This document shows, in pieces, positions 1 through 13,484 of a DNA stretch of 13,484 nucleotides; position 1 is the first letter of the stretch; every line of letters starts with the position of its first letter. The notes beneath the pieces were generated by a model that searched no databases, was not told the origin of the DNA, and saw nothing but the letters and a program-made list of their open reading frames with translations. Both the position numbers and the translations under genes were made by a program. This DNA is from a virus (Duplodnaviria; Heunggongvirae; Uroviricota; Caudoviricetes): IMG/VR virus record IMGVR_UViG_2737471832_000007. One strand, 5' to 3'.

Positions 1-18
1 CGGAAGTCGCTGTCGTTT

Positions 19-813
19 TCAAAATCGGTGGAGCTGCATGACAAAGTCATCGGGCATTATCTGAACATAAAACACTATCAATAAGTTGGAGTCATTACCG
101 CTGTGTTTAACATGTTTTTTGATATATGATTTATTTTTTAATGCCCAAGAAACCGAATGCGTATATATGCTATCAAAACAATGTGATACATCTAACATCC
201 ACATCACCGAGAATCTTTTCTCAAGCTCAATAAACATCTTACTTTGAAATAGTTTATATATCCTGTTGAAACCGCCATAACTAAAATAAGAGGATGAATA
301 TTTCCTCATTAACTCATCCTTTGTTGTTTCGATATCTTCCCCTTTATATTTTTCCAAAGCATTATTTTCATATAAAAAGAAAGAGTTAGCGACCTTACGT
401 GGGTAGCGAATAGAAAAATTACTTTTTAAAGTATTTAATGTGATAACGGATGAGTATGTTTTATAAAATTCCGAATAATTAATTTGAGATCTTGGGTGAA
501 TTAAAGAAAGATGTCTTTGGCTAAAGGCATCTTTTACTATACAATAGCCAAATGGGGAGCTTTGTTTCTTCTTTTCTCGGTGGCGATCTGCGACACTAAT
601 AGAAGAGTCTAAATTAGGGTTAACTATTTTTTTTAAGAAAGAAGAAACCGGAGTAAAATGTAACAAATCATTACAAACTCTATCATATTCTGTTAAGTTT
701 ATATATAAGCCATCATTTGAAAAAATAATTGGACAATCACCGGGCAGTGTATCACATAGTAAAGCCCTGAGATAATCTTTCTTATCAAGTTTAATGTTTT
801 TCTTTATAACCAT
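19..813 (-). CDS. RT-like protein 2: RT fingers and motif A only; possibly a truncated or frameshifted second reverse transcriptase
   Basis: ATG at 813 overlaps the 3' end of the upstream RT gene by 10 nt. Residues 91-107 CIVKDAFSQRHLSLIHP resemble RT domain 1; residues 206-216 MLDVSHCFDSI (coords 166-198) match RT motif A. No motif B or C before the TGA at 19-21. AT-rich. Confidence 0.5.
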   Translation of the reverse strand: MVIKKNIKLDKKDYLRALLCDTLPGDCPIIFSNDGLYINLTEYDRVCNDLLHFTPVSSFLKKIVNPNLDSSISVADRHREKKKQSSPFGYCIVKDAFSQRHLSLIHPRSQINYSEFYKTYSSVITLNTLKSNFSIRYPRKVANSFFLYENNALEKYKGEDIETTKDELMRKYSSSYFSYGGFNRIYKLFQSKMFIELEKRFSVMWMLDVSHCFDSIYTHSVSWALKNKSYIKKHVKHSGNDSNLLIVFYVQIMPDDFVMQLHRF

Positions 814-2081: not shown

Positions 2082-2129
2082 AATACCCTCATTAAACTAT
2101 CCTCTGTACTTTTTATAGCTCTTTCCATC

Positions 2130-2428
2130 ACTTCCCGCAATCGTATCTCCACAACAGCGACCGCTTTATATAGTAATTTTCATAACTTCGATTACAGCTC
2201 AAAACATGCGGTAACCGTGCCATAGTTATACCATTCAACGCCCTTACGCGGGCAGCCCCGCACGCCTGCCCGCTTCGCTTAACAGACTGGTTTTCATGCA
2301 TGCCATAAATCGTCTCAGATACCACCACACAAAGGTTTTCGCCTCAAAAAGGGTGCATAAGACTCATGCATTTTCATGCGCCATAGACATGCACTCATAC
2401 GCTCTCAGGCCAGCCAGGGAAAAGGTGT
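2130..2428 (-). ncRNA. Candidate structured noncoding leader or template RNA upstream of the RT gene (hypothetical)
   Basis: About 350 nt with no convincing ORF between the delta terminator and the RT start. Contains a perfect 8-bp GC stem (2248-2255 pairing 2266-2273), a CATGC-rich motif cluster and an imperfect ~19-bp direct repeat (2291-2309 and 2371-2389). Confidence 0.25.
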
Positions 2429-2455
2429 TAAAAATCCCGGTACTCGACCGGGATT
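2429..2455 (-). terminator. Intrinsic terminator of the late operon
   Basis: Stem ATCCCGG/CCGGGAT (2434-2440 pairing 2448-2454) with a 7-nt loop, followed on the minus strand by TTTT; sits ~20 nt after the delta stop. A T7 run at 2465-2471 on the plus strand may give bidirectional function. Confidence 0.5.
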
Positions 2456-2475
2456 ACGTGGGCGTTTTTTTCTAA

Positions 2476-2748
2476 TCAGACAGGAATCTGCTGACGGCTT
2501 GACAGTTTTGACGCGGAGCCATAGCGATTGAGCGTTTGCTGTTGTTTTACCGGGGGTTGTGATTTGTCTGGTTCCTGTTCATTGCGCCGGGGTTTCATGA
2601 TTATCTTATCCACACTCTCCAGTGCCGTAAATGTGCAGGAACATTCCAGATTCTGGCACTGATACCACGAGCGTTTAACTGACGGAGCTTCATAGGCTGC
2701 TGTTCTGGCGTGTGCAACTGTACCGCATTCCGGACATTTAAGTGCCAT
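2476..2748 (-). CDS. delta: Ogr/Delta-family zinc-finger late-gene transcriptional activator
   Basis: Exact C-x2-C-x22-C-x4-C spacing (CPEC...CQNLEC), the Ogr/Delta finger. ATG at 2748 with GGAG upstream; the ORF-track start at 2757 is a GTG extension. About 90 aa, single domain. Confidence 0.8.
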   Translation of the reverse strand: MALKCPECGTVAHARTAAYEAPSVKRSWYQCQNLECSCTFTALESVDKIIMKPRRNEQEPDKSQPPVKQQQTLNRYGSASKLSSRQQIPV

Positions 2749-2753
2749 TAATA

Positions 2754-3305
2754 TCACTCCTGTATATCGTTAATGTCATTCAGGCGTTGCTGAAAACGCA
2801 GATGTTGTGCCGGGGTGTAAGAACCCTGGCAATCACGAATCATCCCGGGGTCAGGCATCAAACCGGATTCATCCAGGATCTCACGATAATCCCCAGCAAT
2901 TTCAGGCGGTGTTATTGCCAGCTGGCGAACCAGAGCACTGCGTAATATACGGGACGCAACGTCAACCCCTCCGCGCCCCTTCAGGAACGGAGCCAGTGCA
3001 GATGTCAGGGCTGCCCCATTCGCCTGCATAAAATTGCTGAGAGCGGCTTCTGTGCAGGCCTCCATCAGTAAATGCTGCGAGTAAATGCATTCGCGCGCAG
3101 CACAGTTAATTTGCCATTTCAGCACATCCAGACGTTCCCGCAGTAATTCGAGCTGTCGGGCATAATCTGCTGGTTTTTCTGTGGCAGCGAGGAGAGATGT
3201 TATCTGTTGTTCAACGGCTTTTCGGCTCTCATTATGTCCGGCCCACAGAATGCGGGCATTCCGAAAACTGGTAAGTGCCTGGTCAGGCGTGCCTCGGGCC
3301 GTCAT
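2754..3305 (-). CDS. psu: Polarity suppression protein Psu homologue
   Basis: 183 aa. Segments LDVLKWQINCAARECI, FMQANGAALTSALAPFL and YTPAQHLRF resemble P4 Psu as recalled. Strong AAGGAG Shine-Dalgarno; ATGA overlap with the upstream ORF. Confidence 0.75.
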   Translation of the reverse strand: MTARGTPDQALTSFRNARILWAGHNESRKAVEQQITSLLAATEKPADYARQLELLRERLDVLKWQINCAARECIYSQHLLMEACTEAALSNFMQANGAALTSALAPFLKGRGGVDVASRILRSALVRQLAITPPEIAGDYREILDESGLMPDPGMIRDCQGSYTPAQHLRFQQRLNDINDIQE

Positions 3306-3619
3306 ACTGCTTTCTCCTTCTCAGCAAGTTCCTGACGAACCTTAATTTTATGCATAGCTGCCGGAGAGAGTTGATTACTGAAATCCAGACGCGCCGCATA
3401 ATCCGGGGCAACTCCCGCCAGTTTAAACACCGGGTCCTGCTCAGGCATCGCATCGTTAGCCAGAGCCGGTCTGGTGATATGTTTATGAATAAAGTCTTTC
3501 AGCACTGTGTCCGGGTCATTAACTGAATTCACCACACCCACAACGGCACTGGCTTCCCGGCCCATTGTGGATTTAAGCAGGCTCAGCGTCTGAATAAGCG
3601 CTTTTCCATGCGACTGCAT
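3302..3619 (-). CDS. Late-operon protein, unknown function (possibly the C-terminal part of a Sid-like protein)
   Basis: 105 aa; ATG at 3619 preceded by AGGAGG; stop overlaps the psu start (ATGA). Same reading frame as ORF 3629-4045, separated by one TAG and three codons. Confidence 0.6.
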   Translation of the reverse strand: MQSHGKALIQTLSLLKSTMGREASAVVGVVNSVNDPDTVLKDFIHKHITRPALANDAMPEQDPVFKLAGVAPDYAARLDFSNQLSPAAMHKIKVRQELAEKEKAV

Positions 3620-3628
3620 AAAATCCTC

Positions 3629-4045
3629 CTAGATTTGTTTTGCGCGAATATCCACAAGAATGTTATGCGCGTGGATATACTTTCCGGCTAATTCTGCAGC
3701 TTTCTGCGGCAAAAGTGCATTTTCGCTTTCCTGAGCCGCCAGCAGCTCATCAAAATCCTCAAGCGTTTCTCGTCCCAGCGCAATTTCCGTGCGCAGTTTT
3801 TTCATTTCCTTTGAGACCACGCCCTGACTTTCACGAAACAGCGTGCGCCACTCCTCATTCAGTGTGTTCGTCGTGGCTTCCATTTCAGCGCGACGCTGGC
3901 GGATTGTCGCAATATTATCCGCTGCCGCTTTCTGCTGACGACGTGCTTCAAGCCATGCGTTTCTGGCTGTGTTCATGGTTTCCAGTGCCCGCTGCGTTAC
4001 AGCCGGAAAAGTGGAAAGGTTGTTATTTACTGCGGTATTGTTCAT
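3629..4045 (-). CDS. First gene of the Delta-activated late operon; putative Sid-like protein
   Basis: 138 aa, helical/coiled-coil-like composition; ATG at 4045 with AGGAG 5 nt upstream; sits just downstream of two TGT-N12-ACA dyads. Position is analogous to P4 sid; identity not confirmed. Confidence 0.55.
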   Translation of the reverse strand: MNNTAVNNNLSTFPAVTQRALETMNTARNAWLEARRQQKAAADNIATIRQRRAEMEATTNTLNEEWRTLFRESQGVVSKEMKKLRTEIALGRETLEDFDELLAAQESENALLPQKAAELAGKYIHAHNILVDIRAKQI

Positions 4046-4079
4046 GACTTCTCCTGTCGGGTTGGTTCGTTACGTCAAT

Positions 4080-4135
4080 TGTGTCGTGGCTGACACAAGC
4101 ACACTATCGGTGTTCAGTGTGTGGTGGCTGGCACA
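4080..4135 (-). promoter_or_regulatory. Late promoter with two Ogr/Delta-type activator sites (TGT-N12-ACA)
   Basis: TGTgtcgtggctgacACA at 4080-4097 and TGTgtggtggctggcACA at 4118-4135, centres 38 bp apart, upstream of the ATG at 4045. Confidence 0.5.
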
Positions 4136-4223
4136 ACGGGCGCTTGCGGTTATTCAGACGTGGCTATGAAAGCCAGCCAGATAAAAATGCCCTCTGTTTC
4201 AGTCTGCTTTATGTCCCTGATGC

Positions 4224-4411
4224 GGTGGAACAGGTGAAACATGTGTTACAGCTTTGTTTTATAAGACATTTATATACACTGCACCGGTGAAACATCGCGG
4301 GTAACAAGGTGGAACAGCGGATTGGCTGGCGTTACATCTGTTCCACCTCACTATTTCAGAAGGTGGAACAGGTTCAGCCCTGTAAAATACGGTTGTTCCA
4401 CCTGTTTCACC
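4224..4411. repeat. Iteron cluster, crr/ori-like replication region
   Basis: Eight copies of GGTG(G/A)AACA: direct at 4224, 4233, 4286, 4308 and 4362; inverted (TGTT(C/T)CACC) at 4339, 4394 and 4403. Lies immediately downstream of the alpha gene; resembles the P4 TGTTCACC type-I iterons as recalled. Confidence 0.6.
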
Positions 4412-4445
4412 TGTTACCCTTAATAAATAAGACTCACGCAAAGCC

Positions 4446-7118
4446 TTAACCCGGCACCTCGCTGTTGAAGACATAGAGCCTGCGGGGATTCATCTCTGGC
4501 GGGCGAATGGTTGTCTGGAGTTTGCCATCAGTGGAGGGCAGCAGGTATCCACGATCTGCGCACAGACGCGCCACCTTGCGCGGGTCAAATCCCCTGCAGA
4601 TTTCTTTCCAGCCGGACGGCATGACATAGAACGTAGTGACAGCTTCCGTGCCCTGCGCGGTACTGCCTTTCTCCACCCTGCGCCAGCCCACCATATTGCC
4701 GGGGCGGTTGCGCTCGTCATACCAGTCTGCAAAGCGGCTGTACTGATTCGCGGTGAAGAAACTGCGAACCTGCTCCAGTGCGGCGATATCTTCCTGATTG
4801 GCGGTGTGCCCGCGATCTTTCAGCCATGCGTTCAGGCAGACGCGGGTTGCCCGCAGTGCTTCACCCTCAGGCCAGCCGGTGATACCCAGACGGGTTGCCA
4901 GTTCACCTGCCATCGCCACCAGAGCAAAGCGGTTCACAGCCCGGCCCACCTGATTGCCTGCATCTTTCGGAGTCAGGGCGGCAGCATATTCCTTCATCAG
5001 CGATTTTGCCTGTGCCGTTAGTCCGTTAAGATCAGCGGTCAGTGCTTTCAGCCACTCCCGGAACGGCGAACCGTAGTAGCAGGACGTGGCCCATTCAAGA
5101 TGCTCTGCCAGAGCCTTGCCGCTGTCGAAGCCGTGCAGCTCCTCAAAAACGCCAAACTTCCCGGAATCGCTGGGGATCTGGATCATCCTGACTTCCATCC
5201 CGGCAAAAGTACGCTCACCGGCCTTTGCCGCATGTTCGGTCAGAGACAACTCGCCAGTTGAAAAGAACAACAGGCGCCACTGCTTACGGGTACGCAGCTC
5301 ACCGTCCGTACCGGCACGGCCCTTGCCCTGACCGTTTGCCAGCATGTAGGCGATATTGCCTGCCTCGCGTCCGTCAACTTCCCGGATCTCATCAAGCATC
5401 ATGGCGGCATCGTTGCGGCGGCTGGCGCATCCCTCCAGCGCGTTGCCGGTGGCCCGCCATGTCTGCCAGTAGTCAGGCCCGCCGCAGACGGAGGTTGCCG
5501 CTTTCATGGTGGTGGTCTTACCGTCTGTCGATTCCCCTTTGAGGTGGTAGCCGCCGCCGTCCATACCAACCAGCCGTAACAGTGGTGCAGCAAAGGCCAG
5601 GCTGACAGCAAATGCCACGCGGGAGTTGCCGGTACAGTAGCGGGATACATGCTCCCGCCATTCCTCTGTTGTGCCCGACACGCGGAAATCACGCCCCTGC
5701 ACGGAAGTGGTCTGGAGAATGACACCCTCTGCACCTTCACCGCTGACCTCATCCTGCAGGACGTAAACCTGACCATGCCAGCCAGTACGACTGACGCAGG
5801 TCACGCGGCGTTCCGGTTTACACAGTGAGATATATTCCATCAGGCGTGCGCGTGCCTCACCGGTGGTGCTGATATAAGACAGCCCGTTAACCAGCAGTAC
5901 CCGGCGCAGTTCCTCACCACTGCCGCTCAGCATTTCCATCGGCATCGCCCAGCGGCGACACTCACCCCACGTATCTTCCCATTCCAGCAGTCGTCCGAAG
6001 TTACCGCCATCGGCATCGCAGGTGATTGCCGTCACGCGCAGCGGGCTGCATATTTTGACGTTCTGGATCTCCGTCTCACCGTTGCGCTGTACCTGCTTTT
6101 CATACCAGAGATATTCCTGGGTAAGACGGAACCCGTGCGGCAGTTGCGTGCGGCCTTCCCCGCACAGTACCAGACCGTTGCGAAAGGCTTCACGGGCACG
6201 GGTAATACCGTGCTCCCGATGAAAGTCATTCCAGTCAGCCTTAATCTCTCCTGGTGGCAGCGTCATCCAGCCGCCAACAGCTTTTGCCGCCCGTTCAGCA
6301 AAGGCTCTGCCGGGATTCTCACCTCCGTCCTGAAAATCGTTATCACCGGCGATGATAATTTTTACCTCAGGCCAGCGTGCCCGCAGCGACTGCGCCACAT
6401 TGGGCAGGTTGCCCGCAGATATGGCAGCCACTACGCATCCGGCAGTGAGCTGACTTACCGTCAGCGCCGTAGCGTAACCTTCGGTAATCACCACCTGTAC
6501 CGGTGGTTCAGACGGTAACGGGCTGAGCGACACAAACGCGCCTTTCATCGTGCTGCCGGGCAGTATGCTTTTTTCACCCGTCGGGGCGATAAGCTGTGCA
6601 CCAGTCACGGCTCCGGTGTTGGTCGTGAGTGGTAACAGCAGGGAACCGGCAGGAAAATCCTTACCGCTGATATGCTGCACGCTTCCGGTCAGAGAGGCCG
6701 GGTATCCGGCGAACCCTTTTCCTGTCAGATAGGCGCTTTCTCCCGTGTGGCTCTCTTTCATCAGCGCCGCCACGGTAAGACCCATGTCGCGTTTAGGGGC
6801 TTTTTGTCTGGCAGGCTTAACAGGCAGTTCCTGCACATCCGGCACATTAAGCACCTGCGCCACCTCCTGCGCAGCCTTTCTGATGCTGTAACCGGTTACG
6901 AGCTTAACCAGATCCAGACCGTCACCATTGCCACACTGGCTGCAGATCCACGTCCCGCGCCCGTCAAGGTCATCAAGGCGAAAACGATCCTTGCCCCCAC
7001 ATTTCGGGCAGGGACCGTGCCTGCCGTTTTCAGGTACATCAATACGCAGCATCTGGAGAATAACGGGCCATTTCCCCCGTGCGGCGGCTGAAATCTGCGT
7101 AACCGTCTGTATTGTCAT
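4446..7118 (-). CDS. alpha: Alpha-type DNA primase-helicase (zinc-binding N-terminus, primase, D5-like helicase)
   Basis: 890 aa. N-terminal CPKCGG...CSQCG zinc motif, GKT Walker-A-like motif, and overall resemblance to P4 alpha. ATG at 7118 in an ATGA overlap with the upstream ORF. Confidence 0.85.
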   Translation of the reverse strand: MTIQTVTQISAAARGKWPVILQMLRIDVPENGRHGPCPKCGGKDRFRLDDLDGRGTWICSQCGNGDGLDLVKLVTGYSIRKAAQEVAQVLNVPDVQELPVKPARQKAPKRDMGLTVAALMKESHTGESAYLTGKGFAGYPASLTGSVQHISGKDFPAGSLLLPLTTNTGAVTGAQLIAPTGEKSILPGSTMKGAFVSLSPLPSEPPVQVVITEGYATALTVSQLTAGCVVAAISAGNLPNVAQSLRARWPEVKIIIAGDNDFQDGGENPGRAFAERAAKAVGGWMTLPPGEIKADWNDFHREHGITRAREAFRNGLVLCGEGRTQLPHGFRLTQEYLWYEKQVQRNGETEIQNVKICSPLRVTAITCDADGGNFGRLLEWEDTWGECRRWAMPMEMLSGSGEELRRVLLVNGLSYISTTGEARARLMEYISLCKPERRVTCVSRTGWHGQVYVLQDEVSGEGAEGVILQTTSVQGRDFRVSGTTEEWREHVSRYCTGNSRVAFAVSLAFAAPLLRLVGMDGGGYHLKGESTDGKTTTMKAATSVCGGPDYWQTWRATGNALEGCASRRNDAAMMLDEIREVDGREAGNIAYMLANGQGKGRAGTDGELRTRKQWRLLFFSTGELSLTEHAAKAGERTFAGMEVRMIQIPSDSGKFGVFEELHGFDSGKALAEHLEWATSCYYGSPFREWLKALTADLNGLTAQAKSLMKEYAAALTPKDAGNQVGRAVNRFALVAMAGELATRLGITGWPEGEALRATRVCLNAWLKDRGHTANQEDIAALEQVRSFFTANQYSRFADWYDERNRPGNMVGWRRVEKGSTAQGTEAVTTFYVMPSGWKEICRGFDPRKVARLCADRGYLLPSTDGKLQTTIRPPEMNPRRLYVFNSEVPG

Positions 7119-7498
7119 ACTTCCCCCTGATACAACGTCACACCGGTACTGCAGAAGTCATCAAAGGCCGCCGGAAGCGTGCGGTACATCTCCGCCATCA
7201 CTTCACAGCCGCGCGCGGTCAGTACCGGCGGCGCGGTCAGCAGTGACGGCTCCAGCATGTCAGTCAGCAGTGCCAGCGCGGCAGCGGCGCCCTGTGCTTC
7301 GCCGTACTCGTTAATCAGTACGCACTCGATATGCAGCGCAATGGCCATTTCAATACGCTCCACCGTCAGGCTGTGCGGACCATACTGATCACTGCCAGTT
7401 TCGTTCAGCATTTTCTGCCGCCATGCTGAAGCAATAGCCCGCCGGTAAAGCGCGGTGGTCATTTCTGCCGGGAAAATGGAAACCTGCGGCTGGTTCAT
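7115..7498 (-). CDS. Early-operon hypothetical protein
   Basis: 127 aa; ATGA overlaps at both ends (coupled to the upstream ORF and to alpha). Confidence 0.55.
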   Translation of the reverse strand: MNQPQVSIFPAEMTTALYRRAIASAWRQKMLNETGSDQYGPHSLTVERIEMAIALHIECVLINEYGEAQGAAAALALLTDMLEPSLLTAPPVLTARGCEVMAEMYRTLPAAFDDFCSTGVTLYQGEV

Positions 7499-7779
7499 CT
7501 GGCACCTCCTTCAATCAGTGCGCAGCTGTGTGCAATATCCGTCAAATCTGCCAGCAGGTACTCCATCAGCGCGGCGACACCATGCGCACAGCCAGTGTCC
7601 AGTGCTCCGGCCTGAGACGGGTATTCAGAAAAGAGAAGCTGGAGCATGTCGCAGGCATTTCTTGCGCGGGTCAGCTTTCCGAAACTGTCCTCTGACAACC
7701 CATAGGCAAAAACACCGGTATTGTGTTTTTCAGGCAAAGTGTGGCCCTGAGCACCGTTGTGCCCGTTTGAAATATTCAT
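7495..7779 (-). CDS. Early-operon small protein (possibly epsilon-like, by position and size)
   Basis: 94 aa; ATG at 7779 with GGAG upstream. Assignment is positional only. Confidence 0.5.
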   Translation of the reverse strand: MNISNGHNGAQGHTLPEKHNTGVFAYGLSEDSFGKLTRARNACDMLQLLFSEYPSQAGALDTGCAHGVAALMEYLLADLTDIAHSCALIEGGAR

Positions 7780-7810
7780 CGTGGATTACTCCGTTTTCAG
7801 CGGTATTGTG

Positions 7811-8170
7811 TCAGAGAAACTTTGAATAGTGACCGTCATCAGGCTCAGCAGAACGCCATATGCTACGCTCCCGCCAGCGGATAAATAGCACAGACGGATG
7901 CAGTGTCAGCGGGCCGGAACCACTACCGCCTGCAGGAGCTGGTGCAGGCTTAAAGAGCGGTACATCAAACAGGCGCGTATATCGCTGTTCAAACCATGCC
8001 AGAGGGCAGGAAGAAAGCTGGTTGTCGCTGTCATGACGTATCAGCACTTCACAGCTGAATTCAGGATTAACCAGCGCCACAGAGGGCGAGGCTTCTATTA
8101 ATCGGATAATCGTGACCGTCCAGCCACGTTCATGCTGCCAGCGTTCGCCGGGATGCGGATAATTACGCAT
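7811..8170 (-). CDS. Early-operon hypothetical protein
   Basis: ATG at 8170 preceded by GGAGG (MRNYPHPG...). The ORF-track start at 8200 is a non-ATG extension. Confidence 0.55.
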   Translation of the reverse strand: MRNYPHPGERWQHERGWTVTIIRLIEASPSVALVNPEFSCEVLIRHDSDNQLSSCPLAWFEQRYTRLFDVPLFKPAPAPAGGSGSGPLTLHPSVLFIRWRERSIWRSAEPDDGHYSKFL

Positions 8171-8339
8171 GTTCACCTCCGCAGGGAATGCGCCCGGCAA
8201 AGCTCAGTACATAGTCCGGGGCAAGTCTGCGCCGCGCTGACCGCTCGTTATCTGCGGTGATCCTTAACATCACAGGACGGGCATTGCGTTGACTGCGGTT
8301 GATCGCCGCAAATAACCAGGTACACTTCTGTTTAGCCAT
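8163..8339 (-). CDS. Small first ORF of the early operon (58 aa), unknown function
   Basis: ATG at 8339 with AAGAGG upstream; TAA at 8163-8165 overlaps the next gene's ATG (ATGCGTAA). Below the ORF-track size cutoff. Confidence 0.4.
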   Translation of the reverse strand: MAKQKCTWLFAAINRSQRNARPVMLRITADNERSARRRLAPDYVLSFAGRIPCGGEHA

Positions 8340-8367
8340 CTTCGTTACCTCTTATAACGGTTGGTTA

Positions 8368-8402
8368 AATGCCCGATTTGTGTTCCCGCACAATCGGGCA
8401 TT
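8368..8402 (-). promoter_or_regulatory. Long stem-loop in the early-operon leader
   Basis: AATGCCCGATT (8368-8378) pairs perfectly with AATCGGGCATT (8392-8402), with additional inner pairing; lies between the divergent promoter region and the first early ORF. Confidence 0.35.
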
Positions 8403-8428
8403 GCTTTTACAAGCGAACTATACTTACA

Positions 8429-8474
8429 ATGGTAATTACCATGTAGTCATCATATTCTAGGGTAATTACCATGT
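8429..8474. promoter_or_regulatory. Two palindromic operator sites in the divergent promoter region
   Basis: Perfect 14-bp palindrome ATGGTAATTACCAT at 8429-8442; second copy GGTAATTACCATGT at 8461-8474 overlaps the RHH start codon. Spacing is 30 bp. Confidence 0.5.
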
Positions 8475-8644
8475 CAACACCACAAGAGAAACGTTCTCCA
8501 CCATTCCAAATGCGTCTTACCGACGATTTTAGGTTGCAACTCGAAAACGAAATGCGCAAAGATGGAGATAGCGCGTTGGCAACTTGGATTAAAAGAATTT
8601 TACGCAAAGAACTCCAATCACGCGGGATTGACCCTAAAGGCTAA
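8471..8644 (+). CDS. Arc/MetJ-type ribbon-helix-helix DNA-binding protein (57 aa)
   Basis: FQMRLTDDFRLQLENEMRKDGDSALATWIKRIL matches the Arc-like RHH pattern. ATG at 8471 with AGGGT upstream, TAA at 8642-8644. Not in the ORF track because it is under 60 aa. Confidence 0.55.
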   Translation: MSTPQEKRSPPFQMRLTDDFRLQLENEMRKDGDSALATWIKRILRKELQSRGIDPKG

Positions 8645-8676
8645 TCAGTTAAATATTACTAACTATCAATTAAGGC

Positions 8677-8967
8677 TTAGGGAGTAGGTGATAATCTATT
8701 CCCTTTATTAATTGCTCTTGCCTTATTTCTCATCCCCTCAAACTGTTGACCTGAGTTTTCTTCAAACCCATCTCGCCACTTATAATAATCAGCAGCGCGC
8801 CATCGTGACATCCGACCTATTTTTATAGGTTTTGGAAAGCGATTCAGAGAAATCAATCGATAAATCCATTTATCACTTAATAAACAATCGGAAGTAATAA
8901 ACTTCATATCGATCAGAGAATCCATTGAAGGTCGTTGCAAAGTAGTATTATCATGTTTAGATAACAT
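8677..8967 (-). CDS. AlpA-family phage regulatory protein / Vis-like DNA-binding protein
   Basis: WIYRLISLNRFPKPIKIGRMSRWRAADYYKW matches the AlpA HTH and FPKPIK signature. ATG at 8967 with GGAG upstream; an internal start at 8925 or 8907 is possible. AT-rich. Confidence 0.7.
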   Translation of the reverse strand: MLSKHDNTTLQRPSMDSLIDMKFITSDCLLSDKWIYRLISLNRFPKPIKIGRMSRWRAADYYKWRDGFEENSGQQFEGMRNKARAINKGNRLSPTP

Positions 8968-9092
8968 TCATCATTCTCCGTTTATCTAAGTCTATTGGCT
9001 TCAACACGGAAAATTAAAACATAGGTTATAAATGAGAAAAATGTGACTAATGAAAAAAATTCAAAATCATTAGCCACAACAATTGTTAATAT

Positions 9093-9917
9093 TTAGTTAA
9101 ACTTAATGTTTTTCATGCAACTACGTAGCAAACTAACAACAGTATCATAGCTCAAAGGCGGTTCTCCGGTCTTAGGCCAGAACTCACTGGCATGTTGAAA
9201 AAGATAATCAGCTATCGCTGCTGGACTCTCTCTTCTTAGCCTCATATCACGATGATAGAGCGAAATAATAGCCATGAGTATTTCAGCTCGAGGAACAGCA
9301 TGTTTTTGTTTTTGCGCCTCAGATTGTGATTTATATTTATTGGCGTTTTTTATCCGCTTTTGTTCGCATAAGACTATATCAATGAATTTTTGAATCTGTA
9401 CCTTTGTAATCCACAAAACCTCAAAAAGATAATAATTTTCTTTTTCATCATAATTTACATAAAGAATTACCTTACAATTTATATTAGGCGTACCCGCCAG
9501 TAGAAAATGAATAGGCCAGGAATCCGGTTGCCCCTCATGCTTAACTAACAGATCTTTATATTCATAATCAACAGCCCATAAACCGGATATGAAGCATCGA
9601 ATAAAACCATTTTTATCAATTAAATTATCTTCATCAGGGATTCTTATAGAACTTAAGTCTGACAACATAATATTGCCATTTCTATCTCGTGGTAAATATT
9701 TCAGATTAGATAAGAACTCATCTATTTGACCATCAATCTTCAAACCACATGAAACATCATACTCATCATCATGGAATTCCATGCATAGCTCTACATCTCG
9801 TTCTCTGGCAAACCAGAGTATATCCTTTTCACTACAACCAATTTTTTCTGAAGCTTCATCCAACTGGTAGTAATCTCTGAGCAGAGAATCAGTATTATTA
9901 ATTTTTAAAATATTCAT
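9093..9917 (-). CDS. Unknown 274-aa protein translationally coupled to the integrase
   Basis: ATG at 9917 overlaps the int stop (ATGA). AT-rich; possible N-terminal HTH-like stretch (EKIGCSEKDILWFARE). No recognisable family. Confidence 0.6.
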   Translation of the reverse strand: MNILKINNTDSLLRDYYQLDEASEKIGCSEKDILWFARERDVELCMEFHDDEYDVSCGLKIDGQIDEFLSNLKYLPRDRNGNIMLSDLSSIRIPDEDNLIDKNGFIRCFISGLWAVDYEYKDLLVKHEGQPDSWPIHFLLAGTPNINCKVILYVNYDEKENYYLFEVLWITKVQIQKFIDIVLCEQKRIKNANKYKSQSEAQKQKHAVPRAEILMAIISLYHRDMRLRRESPAAIADYLFQHASEFWPKTGEPPLSYDTVVSLLRSCMKNIKFN

Positions 9918-11104
9918 TTATGAGTACCAATTTGCTCAGATAAATAATTAGCATACCATTGCATCATTTCTCTTCTCCCTTCGAGATATTGGGCATGGTT
10001 ATAAATTCCACGAATAGAGTTTTTGTCCGAATGAGCAAGCTGGGTTTCAATCCAAGCGCTGTTAAATCCTTTCTCATGTAGGATTGTACTCATCGTATGC
10101 CTGAAACCATGCCCCGTAACACGCCCTGCATATCCAATACGTTTAAACACCTGATTAATGCTTGCTTCACTCATAAATTTGCTGGGATCGTTGCGTCCAG
10201 GGAACATCAGCGGGTAGTTCCCAGTTAGTTCTTTCAAACTTTTGAGATGGGATAATGCTTGTTTTGACAACGGGACAATATGGCTCCTACGCATTTTCAT
10301 ACGTTCTTTTGGGATCTCCCACACCGCATTATCAAAATCCACCTCTCGCCACTCACCTGCTCGTAGTTCTCCAGTTCGTAGACCTGTCAGGATAAGTAAA
10401 TGCGCCCCCAACAATACAATTGGACTTCCTGAATAAGAATTAAGGGCATTAAAGAACTCCGGTAGTTCGTTGGCTTTGAGGAATGGATAGTGGACTGCTT
10501 CATGTCCTTGCATCGCACTGGCAAGATCCGGTGCCGGATTGTAGATTGCCCTACCCGTTACGATGGCATAGCGAAAAACTTCACCGCATCGCTGACGGAC
10601 TTTCTTCGCTTTCTCCATAGCGCCTCGAGCTTCTATCAACCTCAGAACTTCAAGCAGTTCAAGGGGCTGAATATCAGCTATAGGTCTGTGCCCAATATGC
10701 GGGAAAATGTCTTTCTCGAATGCCTCAATGATGTCGGAAGCATAGCCCTCAGACCATTTGGGTGATTTCATTTTGTGCCACTCTAACGCCACTTCTCTGA
10801 ATGGGTTAAGTGTCTCACTCGCTGCATTTAAAGCCTGCTTTTTGGCTTTTTTGACTTCGCCGGGATCTTCACCTGCTGCGAGTAGTTTCTTCGCGTCTTC
10901 TCGTTTTTGTCTGGCATCAGCAAGTGTGACTGTTGGATAAACACCAAAGGACAATCGTTTCTCTTTACCAGCAAAACGGTATTTCATACGCCAGTAACGC
11001 GAGCCATTAGGTTCGACCTGAAGGTATAGGCCACCTCCATCAAACAGCTTGTAGCTCTTCTCTTTTCCTTTCGCAGCTTCAACCTTGCGGGCATTCAGCA
11101 TCAT
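9914..11104 (-). CDS. int: P4-type tyrosine integrase
   Basis: N-terminal arm-binding signature (KLFDGGGLYLQVEPNGSRYWRMKYRFAGKEKRLSFGVYP); catalytic HGFRHT and GIYNHAQY motifs. Likely start is the ATG at 11104 (MMLNARK...); the ORF-track start at 11173 is a TTG extension. Confidence 0.9.
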   Translation of the reverse strand: MMLNARKVEAAKGKEKSYKLFDGGGLYLQVEPNGSRYWRMKYRFAGKEKRLSFGVYPTVTLADARQKREDAKKLLAAGEDPGEVKKAKKQALNAASETLNPFREVALEWHKMKSPKWSEGYASDIIEAFEKDIFPHIGHRPIADIQPLELLEVLRLIEARGAMEKAKKVRQRCGEVFRYAIVTGRAIYNPAPDLASAMQGHEAVHYPFLKANELPEFFNALNSYSGSPIVLLGAHLLILTGLRTGELRAGEWREVDFDNAVWEIPKERMKMRRSHIVPLSKQALSHLKSLKELTGNYPLMFPGRNDPSKFMSEASINQVFKRIGYAGRVTGHGFRHTMSTILHEKGFNSAWIETQLAHSDKNSIRGIYNHAQYLEGRREMMQWYANYLSEQIGTHK

Positions 11105-11180
11105 TGGGGGCACATTTCCTAGATCGAACAGAACATGCCCCTGATTGTGCCCCCAACCGCGTGTTGATTTCAAGAGACAA

Positions 11181-11254
11181 GGGTTGACCTCAAACGTATG
11201 AAAACAACGTAATATATATGTTTTTAAATGATTTTGTTGATGTGGGTTGACTTG
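11181..11254. repeat. Direct repeats GGGTTGAC(C/T)T between int and the att core (candidate Int arm-type sites)
   Basis: GGGTTGACCT at 11181-11190 and GGGTTGACTT at 11244-11253. Confidence 0.3.
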
Positions 11255-11268
11255 GGAAAACTAGGTGA

Positions 11269-11314
11269 TGGTGCCGATAATAGGAGTCGAACCTACGACC
11301 TTCGCATTACGAAT
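11269..11314 (-). tRNA. Partial tRNA-Thr(CGU): 3'-terminal 46 nt only (att core, not a functional tRNA)
   Basis: Reverse complement reads ATTCGTAATGCGAAGGTCGTAGGTTCGACTCCTATTATCGGCACCA: anticodon loop with CGT, T-arm, acceptor 3' strand and CCA. The 5' D-arm and acceptor half are absent upstream. Confidence 0.7.
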
Positions 11315-11618
11315 TATAAGAATCCGCTTCTAATTCAAAGCATTACCCCATCAACACTGCGCTCACAAGTCCCACCACATCAAAACATGTAAAGCCTTGC
11401 AAGCCATTGCTAGGCCTTATGTGTCTCAGTTTTGTCCCACTACGACCCGCATAACCAATAAGAAGATTGCAGTGATGTCAAACGACACAGCAGCCTTCTT
11501 TTCCTTCATACTTTCCCCACCCAGCATGCATACCTTCTACCATAACTGTAGTGAATGTCTGTTATGAGCGAGGAGCGGAAGTTGGAATGCATACTTAAAT
11601 CGAGCAATTTTGAGTTAT

Positions 11619-11626
11619 GGGGGGGG
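11619..11626. repeat. Homopolymeric G8 tract upstream of the 384-aa gene
   Basis: Eight consecutive G at 11619-11626, about 30 bp upstream of a TATGAT -10-like hexamer (11655-11660). Confidence 0.6.
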
Positions 11627-11707
11627 CTGGTCAACCTACTGAATTGTTTTTGCCTATGATAACGGTCACAATCAACCTCTAAGTGTGCTGATTTGAAAGT
11701 GATTTCC

Positions 11708-12847
11708 ATGAAGATGACCAAGGCAGATTTTGGTGTAACTATTGATGATACTTTAATAACTGATTTTCGAGATGTGGTTAATGAAGGGGAGTTTGCTTAC
11801 AGCTACTTCATAAACAGAAATGGTAAAAACCAGTTCAGCCCTATCTGTTCGTGCATGGATTGGATAAGCGTTTCTGTTCGCAATCTGATGAACTTCCCTG
11901 AGCTGTCGGAAGATATTGATGTCAAGGCCATGCAGGTTTACTCCCTTATATCATCTATTGATATTGCTGTGGAGGCGTTGCAGCAGCTTCACCGCATCAT
12001 TGAGAGTGATGATAAGTTAGCGAGGTGGCCTTTCAAGAAATCAACGAATGTCTTTAAGAATAAAACGCCCTATCTTTCACATGAGGATGATGACGCATAC
12101 TTTAAGAGTATTCGAGCTATCTTTGGTGCTCACCCTACAAATCTTAAAAATAGTGATGGTGAGCGACTGTTTGCAAGCTGGCCTCATTTTCATGCTTTCA
12201 ATGAAAATGATTTCACTATAAGCCTTTACAACAACACGTCAGGGAAAGATGATGTTATTTTCGGCATTAAATTCGATGAGCTAATTACATATATTGAAGA
12301 TAGGTATAAATATCTAACAAGCCTAAAGGGTTCCGTAATAGCAATCCGTATAAAACATTACAGCACCCTATCCAAACAGATTATACCGTCTACTGATAAC
12401 ATTCATGCTGAGTTAAAGTTGCTTCTTTCAGAAGTTGCGGTGCGAGGTGATAACGATTATTACCGAATGGAAGTGGAAGAGTTAATAAAGTTGTTCGAGG
12501 GGAATGTTAAAGAGGCACATCTCAAGGATGAAGCTGACGTATTTTTAAGTAAACTACATCCAATTGCAGTAGAGATTAGATATAATCTTCAGGAAATGAA
12601 TATTGAGGATTTAGCAACTAAGCATGGCGTGTTGATTTCAACACTTCCGAAAAATGCCCTGCATTACGTTCTTCAGAAAATGTTTACTTGGCTCCACTCT
12701 GATAGATATGACCCAATGGGTGGCTTTTACTTGGACAAGTTAAATGAATATTCAGGCGGGCGATACAATTTTTGTTCTGAGGATGATGACAGTACAACTC
12801 TATTGAAGCTCCGGATGATGTTGCATTGGTATCATCAACAAAAATAG
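11708..12847 (+). CDS. Orphan 379/384-aa protein of unknown function (possible Abi/HEPN-like; unconfirmed)
   Basis: Long AT-rich ORF ending TAG at 12845-12847. ATG at 11708; the ORF-track start at 11693 is TTG. Contains an R-x5-H stretch (RAIFGAH). No family recognised. Confidence 0.6.
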   Translation: MKMTKADFGVTIDDTLITDFRDVVNEGEFAYSYFINRNGKNQFSPICSCMDWISVSVRNLMNFPELSEDIDVKAMQVYSLISSIDIAVEALQQLHRIIESDDKLARWPFKKSTNVFKNKTPYLSHEDDDAYFKSIRAIFGAHPTNLKNSDGERLFASWPHFHAFNENDFTISLYNNTSGKDDVIFGIKFDELITYIEDRYKYLTSLKGSVIAIRIKHYSTLSKQIIPSTDNIHAELKLLLSEVAVRGDNDYYRMEVEELIKLFEGNVKEAHLKDEADVFLSKLHPIAVEIRYNLQEMNIEDLATKHGVLISTLPKNALHYVLQKMFTWLHSDRYDPMGGFYLDKLNEYSGGRYNFCSEDDDSTTLLKLRMMLHWYHQQK

Positions 12848-13144
12848 GCTTAGCCACGAAAACAAGCAATACAGTTGGAAGTTCGTGTGACCTATGCGCT
12901 AGGTATTCTGAGACGACAGTGTGACCTGCTCCCTGTTGATTAACATAGGCTGACACTAGCAACGTCCTCTACTGGCACATAGCAGCCCCAGAGACAGTGG
13001 TGTAAAGTCATGGAGGGTCGGTGGGAGGATATTCAGTTTCATTCATGCCGAAATACGGTAAAATCTATAATAGATGGAAATCATTCAATACTCGCACTAA
13101 AGTCCACCATCCAGCCGCAGCAAGTTCTTGCATACGACGTGTCT

Positions 13145-13172
13145 GCGGGTTCAACTCCCGCCAGCTCCACCA
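13145..13172 (+). other. tmRNA (ssrA) 3'-end-like fragment; possible second att core
   Basis: GCGGGTTCAACTCCCGCCAGCTCCACCA matches the 3' terminal T-arm and acceptor of enterobacterial tmRNA as recalled. No tmRNA 5' domain or tag reading frame upstream. Confidence 0.45.
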
Positions 13173-13302
13173 ATCATGATTGGACGGTGTAAGGACAACA
13201 CCAATAAAAACAGGAAGTTAGCAGTCTCAGCAGGACACCAACCAGACGGTGAGCAGACAAAAAAGGATACGCAAAGGAGCCGCGGCTCCCAAGTGACATG
13301 AA

Positions 13303-13325
13303 AGCCCGCATCTGCGGGCTTTTTC
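13303..13325 (+). terminator. Intrinsic terminator
   Basis: GCCCGC (13304-13309), loop ATCT, GCGGGC (13314-13319), followed by TTTTT. Confidence 0.55.
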
Positions 13326-13484
13326 GTTTCATCTGCAAAAATGTCTATACATCAGCTGCCACAAACGGAACAACAGCCTTTATTGATGTAAGCGTCGTCT
13401 CAGCACCGTCTGGCAGATCCTGAAATTCCTGAGAGAATAGTGGACACCAAATATGGTGGACGCTATCCATGAAATCATTAACCG

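Follow-up and report, generated by a model that had tools for sequence, protein, structure and literature searches.

A gene at the distal end of a thrW prophage

The DNA analysed here, which we call the window, is one strand of 13,484 nucleotides from the IMG/VR virus record IMGVR_UViG_2737471832_000007 (Caudoviricetes), and our subject is a single AT-rich gene near its right end, referred to as the orphan gene, together with the element that carries it. An initial annotation of the window had placed an AT-rich gene of unknown function between a tRNA-Thr core and a tmRNA 3'-like fragment, and this description is correct in every particular: both fragments match Escherichia coli K-12 genes exactly, thrW for the tRNA and ssrA for the tmRNA. 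The features of this region, including the attachment (att) arm of the prophage and a remnant shared with Escherichia phage phi458, are as follows:

11269..11314, minus strand: 3' piece of the tRNA-Thr gene thrW, 46 nt, an exact match to the last 46 nt of K-12 thrW
11315..11579, no strand assigned: att-proximal arm of the thrW prophage family, common to genomes without the orphan gene
11580..11707, plus strand: cassette-specific upstream region, present only in genomes with the orphan gene; presumed promoter and 5' untranslated region
11708..12847, plus strand: orphan coding sequence (CDS), 379 aa, WP_000784327.1; ATG start as in RefSeq for other E. coli genomes, where it is named "hypothetical protein"
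12848..13080, no strand assigned: downstream spacer, colinear with phi458
13081..13148, minus strand: 3' remnant of the DNA-invertase gene pin, its last 21 codons and stop; identity with phi458 ends at 13148
13145..13172, plus strand: 3' piece of the tmRNA gene ssrA, 28 nt, an exact match to the last 28 nt of K-12 ssrA

A longer reading of the gene, given in the list of open reading frames (ORFs), runs on the plus strand from a TTG at 11693 to the same end at 12847 and encodes 384 aa. With a GC content of 38.5%, against 46% for the window, 55% for the core of a P4-like satellite to its left, 44-47% for its own flanks and 52% for the ssrA patch to its right, the CDS is indeed as AT-rich as had been noted. 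ARAGORN detected no whole tRNA or tmRNA in the window. The thrW and ssrA matches are nevertheless not due to chance, because the thrW piece lies at a junction of element and chromosome and the ssrA piece continues into its native flank.

The position of the thrW piece is the one at which thrW-integrated elements meet the chromosome in other strains. In E. coli ETEC4073 the same core abuts native thrW-downstream sequence and the yagP' pseudogene, and to its right lie the orphan gene, a type II restriction-modification (R-M) pair, a GIY-YIG gene and prophage tail genes; since the core borders native flank there, it is the distal att repeat, and the gene sits just inside the prophage. When phage genomes were searched with tblastn a single match was obtained, Orf54 of phi458 (OP434518.1), whose protein is 99.7% identical. 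Positions 11268-13151 of the window are colinear with phi458 44314-42431 at 99.84% identity, and in that phage the thrW core is followed by the att arm, Orf54, a truncated pin invertase gene and then the tail-fibre genes; five E. coli prophages have the same order of core, gene, pin' and tail-fibre genes. From 12958 onwards the spacer shares homology with the sequence that lies 3' of pinE in related prophages, with 84.5% identity to that of USMARC-49610. What lies right of 11314 is thus a lambdoid prophage of the phi458 type, integrated in thrW and seen here at its distal (attR) end. The accessible text of the phi458 paper describes a lambdoid phage from avian pathogenic E. coli that is spontaneously induced, and that same text makes no mention of the orphan ORF or of the att site (PMC9701743).

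Among the matches listed, partial hits in other E. coli cover 11320-11579 at 98.8-99.2% identity and then run into different cargo: a SMEK-domain gene, an S1 peptidase gene with BRO, HTH/ImmA and GIY-YIG genes, a DUF6602 gene or, in strain MSB1_9I, two other hypothetical genes. Next to this position other strains carry RnlAB, a type II R-M system or an AAA ATPase. Because the att arm is shared and the cargo beyond it differs, the gene sits in a variable slot: prophages of the phi458 type have a strain-variable region between the att core and the pin/tail-fibre module, occupied here by one AT-rich gene. Three features of a moron slot are found: the gene lies between the att core and a structural module that is conserved in phage genomes, related prophages carry unrelated cargo at this position, and its GC content is deviant. 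The orphan gene itself is rare, being present in 42 of 5,426 complete E. coli genomes (0.8%) at 99.5-99.9% identity, so that the comparison of related strains proposed in the initial annotation places it in the accessory and not in the core genome. The literature searched yielded no description of this thrW-prophage slot, and thrW and ssrA go unmentioned in the E. coli defence-island paper.

The right-hand border has a different origin. Beyond the ssrA piece the window contains two further features:

13173..13329, plus strand: native-type ssrA-downstream sequence, about 157 nt, 90-94% identical to ssrA loci
13388..13484, no strand assigned: end of an IS66-family element, 100% identical to the tnpA side of IS66-like elements carried by many plasmids

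In the Rfam comparison only the 17-nt T-arm of the ssrA piece is recognised (16 bits); however, the whole of 13145-13329 (about 185 nt) is 90-94% identical to the ssrA 3' end and native flank of thousands of E. coli genomes. The pin remnant, whose translation ADTSYARTCCGWMVDFSASIE* is the C-terminus of phi458 Orf53, overlaps the ssrA piece by 4 nt, GCGG, with identity to phi458 extending to 13148 and identity to ssrA beginning at 13145. Strain AST81 has its real ssrA and flank followed by the type II restriction endonuclease (REase) WP_000110239.1 and a Dcm methyltransferase, and in ETEC4073, MSB1_9I and PRO_A-1462 the same two genes also come after the ssrA block; in other strains the ssrA flank is followed by RnlAB or an AAA ATPase. 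In the window the IS66 end truncates the ssrA segment in place of such cargo. The ssrA 28-mer is absent from phi458, which has the orphan gene next to pin, and MSB1_9I has the ssrA patch with other genes instead of the orphan gene, and for this reason the ssrA piece must be the edge of a separately acquired segment. With these 28 nt begins a copy of chromosomal sequence from downstream of ssrA, which was joined to the phage DNA inside pin. The transfer resembles an aberrant excision in which an ssrA element took chromosomal flank with it, or integration at a secondary site. A large chromosomal inversion between thrW and ssrA was also considered as the origin of the piece; it was dropped because only about 185 nt of ssrA-locus DNA, with variable cargo, lie in a prophage end that is otherwise colinear.

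The initial annotation had interpreted the block between the two fragments as a small cargo islet or remnant island. Both fragments are true 3' ends of integration-target genes and they enclose a single low-GC gene, which is what an autonomous islet delimited by thrW and ssrA att fragments would look like; however, the proposal does not hold on any of the tests that define an att-bounded island. The fragments come from different genes, thrW on the minus and ssrA on the plus strand, and face outward in opposite orientation, so there are no direct att repeats. There is no integrase ORF within 11315-13144, the nearest being that of the satellite beyond the core. The block is not present or absent as one unit, as phi458 has the gene without the ssrA piece and MSB1_9I the ssrA piece without the gene, and 11315-11579 is the prophage's own att arm, found also in genomes that lack the gene. 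Finally, the length of the ssrA match is set by an illegitimate-looking junction, the 4-nt overlap inside pin. We consider an islet of this kind very improbable. The comparison with the K-12 islands at these genes, CP4-6 at thrW and CP4-57 at ssrA, leads the same way: the att cores are the same and the thrW piece is a genuine att repeat from the distal end, but the orphan gene is prophage cargo with no island of its own and the ssrA piece belongs to a transplanted chromosomal segment.

On the other side of the core, a P4-like satellite lies left of thrW in the window and in strains 50EVAW and PRO_A-1462. Its integrase is the feature nearest to the core:

9914..11173, minus strand: tyrosine integrase of the P4-like satellite, identified from near-identical annotated loci; context, outside the orphan gene's own element

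In 50EVAW the satellite has a 24-nt partial thrW core at its left, beside native flank, and the full core at its right; it therefore integrated in tandem into the att core of the prophage. The thrW core was thus re-used as an integration site by a satellite that arrived later and whose integrase now stands left of it. Taken together, we hold with high confidence that the locus consists of a prophage cargo slot, a tandem satellite and a transplanted ssrA-downstream segment. One thrW att core has in this way accumulated layers (prophage, satellite, ssrA-downstream segment and insertion sequence (IS) elements), each with defence cargo, which bears on how defence hotspots are mapped. As a separate observation, a 21-nt inverted repeat (11237-11257 and 11363-11383, 81% complementary) brackets the core, with one arm in the satellite and the other in the prophage; the arms could be related integrase-binding sites or a chance match.

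The orphan protein and its family

A search of about 5.8 billion proteins returned 146 matches to the orphan protein, all of them unnamed and without Pfam domains, and a profile search of 1.84 billion representatives extended the family to 663 clusters (50% identity) at E<=1e-3. Family members occur in 78 of 185,579 species genomes; most of these belong to marine and enteric Gammaproteobacteria, others to Campylobacterota, Bacillota, Spirochaetota (Sphaerochaeta) and Mollicutes, and six viral contigs carry members as well; full-length homologues down to about 25-30% identity are found in several phyla. In an alignment of 50 diverse homologues 24 columns are invariant. The strongest motifs are CSCMDW, SLISSID..E..QLHR, DD.YFK.IRA.FGAHP and FASWP, and the invariant polar residues (ATG numbering) form a cluster of D51, H95, D128, R136 and H142, to which S157-W158-P159, R246, Q295, Y320 and K324 are added.

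Neither the protein, nor its distant homologues, nor the 50 alignment members matched Pfam, PADLOC, NCBIfam or PHROGs beyond noise (YHS, Peptidase_M32, DfrI). The only hit of a profile search against PDB sequences was a chance match to a haemagglutinin fusion peptide through a 'GLFGA'-like string. The AlphaFold2 model (pLDDT 92) starts with four helices, continues with a sheet of three strands at 153-187 and ends in a helical C-terminal domain, and Foldseek found nothing in the PDB below E 0.2. The remote-homology search and structure prediction recommended in the initial annotation thus gave a confidently modelled protein with no homology to a housekeeping or metabolic protein in Pfam, NCBIfam, PHROGs, PADLOC or the PDB. 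In rare cases family members are fused to an uncharacterised N-terminal domain (P0112 N-domain) or to a C-terminal DUF6577.

It might be argued that the ORF is spurious or a decaying remnant without function, given that it has no annotation anywhere, is AT-rich and lacks an obvious promoter. The conservation of the family contradicts this reading, with full-length homologues across phyla, the 24 invariant columns and the high pLDDT, and we give it practically no weight. The orphan protein belongs to a real, stand-alone, rare but widespread and uncharacterised protein family.

The initial annotation had also pointed to an R-x5-H stretch compatible with a HEPN-type motif. The stretch is real: it corresponds to R136-A-I-F-G-A-H142 within IRAxFGAHP, the most conserved motif of the family, and its R, G, A and H are invariant in all 50 homologues. 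The HEPN identity, in contrast, found no backing in sequence or fold. If correct, the protein would be a HEPN-type RNase acting as an abortive-infection toxin, in which R136-x5-H142 forms an RNase site that needs no metal and cleaves RNA once infection occurs. The invariance of the motif and a predicted four-helix bundle in the N-terminal 150 residues speak for this possibility; on the other hand, none of the 50 family members matches a HEPN-clan Pfam model, even at E<=10. The residue following the R136 position is A, S or C, and the motif ends the helix 128-141 and is followed by Pro143. The canonical HEPN site, as Anantharaman and colleagues reportedly described it in 2013, has a polar N, D, H or Q after the Arg and lies at the start of the last core helix.

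HEPN domains are common among the stand-alone defence proteins reported with the classifier DefensePredictor (DeWeirdt, Mahoney and Laub, Science 2026; PMC13092281), and four HEPN defence proteins from the supplement of that work served as templates for hhalign. The probability against the family profile was at most 1.4% and the motif was never aligned, single-sequence templates making this a weak test. The HHblits and Foldseek screens of DefensePredictor likewise gave WP_000784327.1 no link to known defence proteins, HEPN included (PMC13092281). Compared with stand-alone HEPN nucleases (DS-29, DS-38, the AbiA C-terminal domain, HEPN toxins), the orphan protein is likewise helical, has an invariant R-x5-H and is encoded by a single mobile-element gene; it differs in the atypical context of the motif and in a beta-sheet insert and large C-terminal helical domain that have no counterpart there. 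Because no hidden Markov model, profile or fold comparison singles out HEPN, the motif is all that the proposal has to stand on, and we regard a HEPN toxin as improbable.

A predicted role in defence

The same DefensePredictor study lists WP_000784327.1 in its Table S5 as a single-gene unit and 'Predicted novel defense gene', with a mean log-odds of 8.17 (range 6.38-9.21, cutoff 4; PMC13092281). As the exact protein is listed there, defence is the best guess for its function, and we lean, if only slightly, towards it. The idea of a defence or abortive-infection cargo gene, already raised in the initial annotation, can thus be kept in part: the gene is rare cargo at an att junction, the slot holds defence genes in other strains and the classifier agrees, whereas protection itself is only predicted. 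The idea is already published as a computational prediction, and what is new here is the anatomy of the locus, the description of the family and the negative HEPN tests.

The surroundings of the gene resemble those of known accessory and defence slots at prophage ends and in satellites. As in the P2 and P4 hotspots (Rousset et al. 2022, PMC9122126), a single low-GC gene lies between the att site and conserved late genes, sister prophages carry unrelated cargo, and the gene adjoins R-M, RnlAB and, in the satellite, DRT3; moreover, a 72%-identical homologue lies in a P2-like remnant, flanked by ogr and a truncated gpD. The difference is that the orphan gene is carried by an element of the phi458 type, a lambdoid phage that integrates in thrW, and not by P2 or P4. 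The units validated with DefensePredictor include a SMEK protein, DS-27, and DS-18, which has the working id '6602' (PMC13092281); SMEK-domain and DUF6602-domain genes are found in the slot of other strains, but they encode proteins different from DS-27 and DS-18.

No conserved neighbour or partner gene was found across 77 loci of the family, and the gene is therefore either stand-alone or acts together with host or phage factors. Directly adjacent to homologues are LmuA (three loci), Avs1a (three loci) and defence-type reverse transcriptases or reverse transcriptase-associated MBL genes (two to three loci), and mobile-element markers (Ogr, TraN, resolvase, RadC) also stand beside them. Individual settings include the variable region of SXT-like integrative and conjugative elements (ICEs), where the homologue has an Endonuclease_1 gene upstream and traN on its other side; a Klebsiella aerogenes islet that also holds genes for a resolvase, AAA_13 and Mrr; and a Photobacterium locus with Card1 and PNP_UDP genes next to the homologue. 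In Proteus mirabilis (loci L010-L014, 7430-7996) a DUF6037 gene lies upstream of the homologue with a 4-nt gap, which has the look of a two-gene operon; DUF6037 in Proteus and Endonuclease_1 in the ICEs are local associations, not seen across the other loci.

Several observations weigh against a defence role. Most homologues have no recognisable defence gene directly beside them, and ordinary genes are common among their neighbours. The family is absent from Pfam, NCBIfam and PHROGs and from PADLOC-DB v2.0.0, in which zero families matched at E<=1. Consensus scans found no convincing sigma-70 site in 11580..11707 and no clear terminator downstream of the gene. WP_000784327.1 is outside the 94 units that were cloned and tested with DefensePredictor, and it differs from the tested units in having no DS number or domain assignment (PMC13092281). 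By our own count of Table S6 of that study, 21 of the 39 tested units with log-odds of 6-10.1 protected against phage; about 46% of comparably scored units gave no protection.

This rate also favours the alternative that the gene is an accessory gene of the prophage, or of mobile genetic elements in general, serving counter-defence, lysogenic conversion, host regulation, or maintenance or addiction of the element. The gene is borne by temperate phages, P2-like remnants and ICEs, many of its neighbours are other than defence genes, and the fusions to the P0112 N-domain and DUF6577 offer no clue to defence. Against such a role stand the defence-type cargo that dominates the slot and its surroundings, log-odds of 8.2, well over the cutoff, and the patchy spread of a solitary gene across phyla, a pattern typical of defence genes. 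In addition, the protein has about 380 aa and a conserved polar cluster, while typical anti-defence proteins are small. Taking these points together, we consider a non-defence role plausible, though less likely than defence.

The gene product is probably a stand-alone protein of the cytoplasm, in which a helical bundle at the N-terminus is followed by a small beta-sheet insert and a helical C-terminal domain. If the defence reading is followed, it would most likely act in a lysogen as a single-protein anti-phage factor, by superinfection exclusion or abortive infection, and the conserved Arg/His/Asp cluster may form the catalytic or ligand-binding site of its effector activity, possibly a nucleolytic one. 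Any specific chemistry is, at best, improbable. A broader proposal makes the protein the first member of a new family of single-protein anti-phage immunity factors. Its fold would have no counterpart in the PDB, its invariant Asp/His/Asp/Arg/His plus Ser-Trp-Pro would form a new catalytic centre, and phages, satellites and ICEs would have distributed the family over hosts that range from Enterobacteria to Bacillota. We put this proposal forward as tentative and, taken as a whole, somewhat doubtful. Since this is a single 1.1-kb E. coli gene carried by a culturable phage, phi458, the question is easily testable. A protective protein would enlarge the set of stand-alone immunity proteins by one whose fold has not been seen before, and such effectors have repeatedly yielded new biochemistry; otherwise it would be one more ordinary prophage gene.

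The satellite left of the core and other islands at thrW

Counted from the core, the gene order of the satellite is int, a 274-aa ORF, an AlpA-type helix-turn-helix (HTH) gene, icd, a TOPRIM-DUF927 primase gene, sid, psu, ogr/delta, drt3a and drt3b. Positions 804-2081 and 2100-11173 of the window together make up a complete P4-like satellite with a DRT type 3 system (drt3a/drt3b) at the end distal to psu and ogr, a position that agrees with the P4-like satellite defence hotspot of Rousset et al. 2022 (PMC9122126). Window positions 1-99 are the terminal part of an IS1 copy that interrupts drt3b: the ORF at 19..813 encodes only the N-terminal third of the 672-aa Drt3b, which is intact in 50EVAW. 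Given this interruption, the DRT3 system of the satellite is probably inactive in the source strain.

The 274-aa ORF (9093-9917, minus strand, GC 34%) lies between the AlpA-like HTH gene and the integrase, where 50EVAW has an IS1. It had no match in Pfam, PADLOC, NCBIfam or PHROGs and may be a second cargo gene. In the icd/immunity region, positions 8334-8405 on the plus strand matched the SymR antitoxin RNA of Rfam below the gathering threshold (31.6 bits against 61, E 0.01), and the satellite may have a structured regulatory RNA here.

A further island uses the same core in strain 5CRE51 (locus L113, 3470-8875), where a different thrW-type integrase is accompanied by genes for an HsdM-like methyltransferase and an ORC/CDC6-family AAA ATPase and by a hypothetical gene; this island is possibly another defence cassette.

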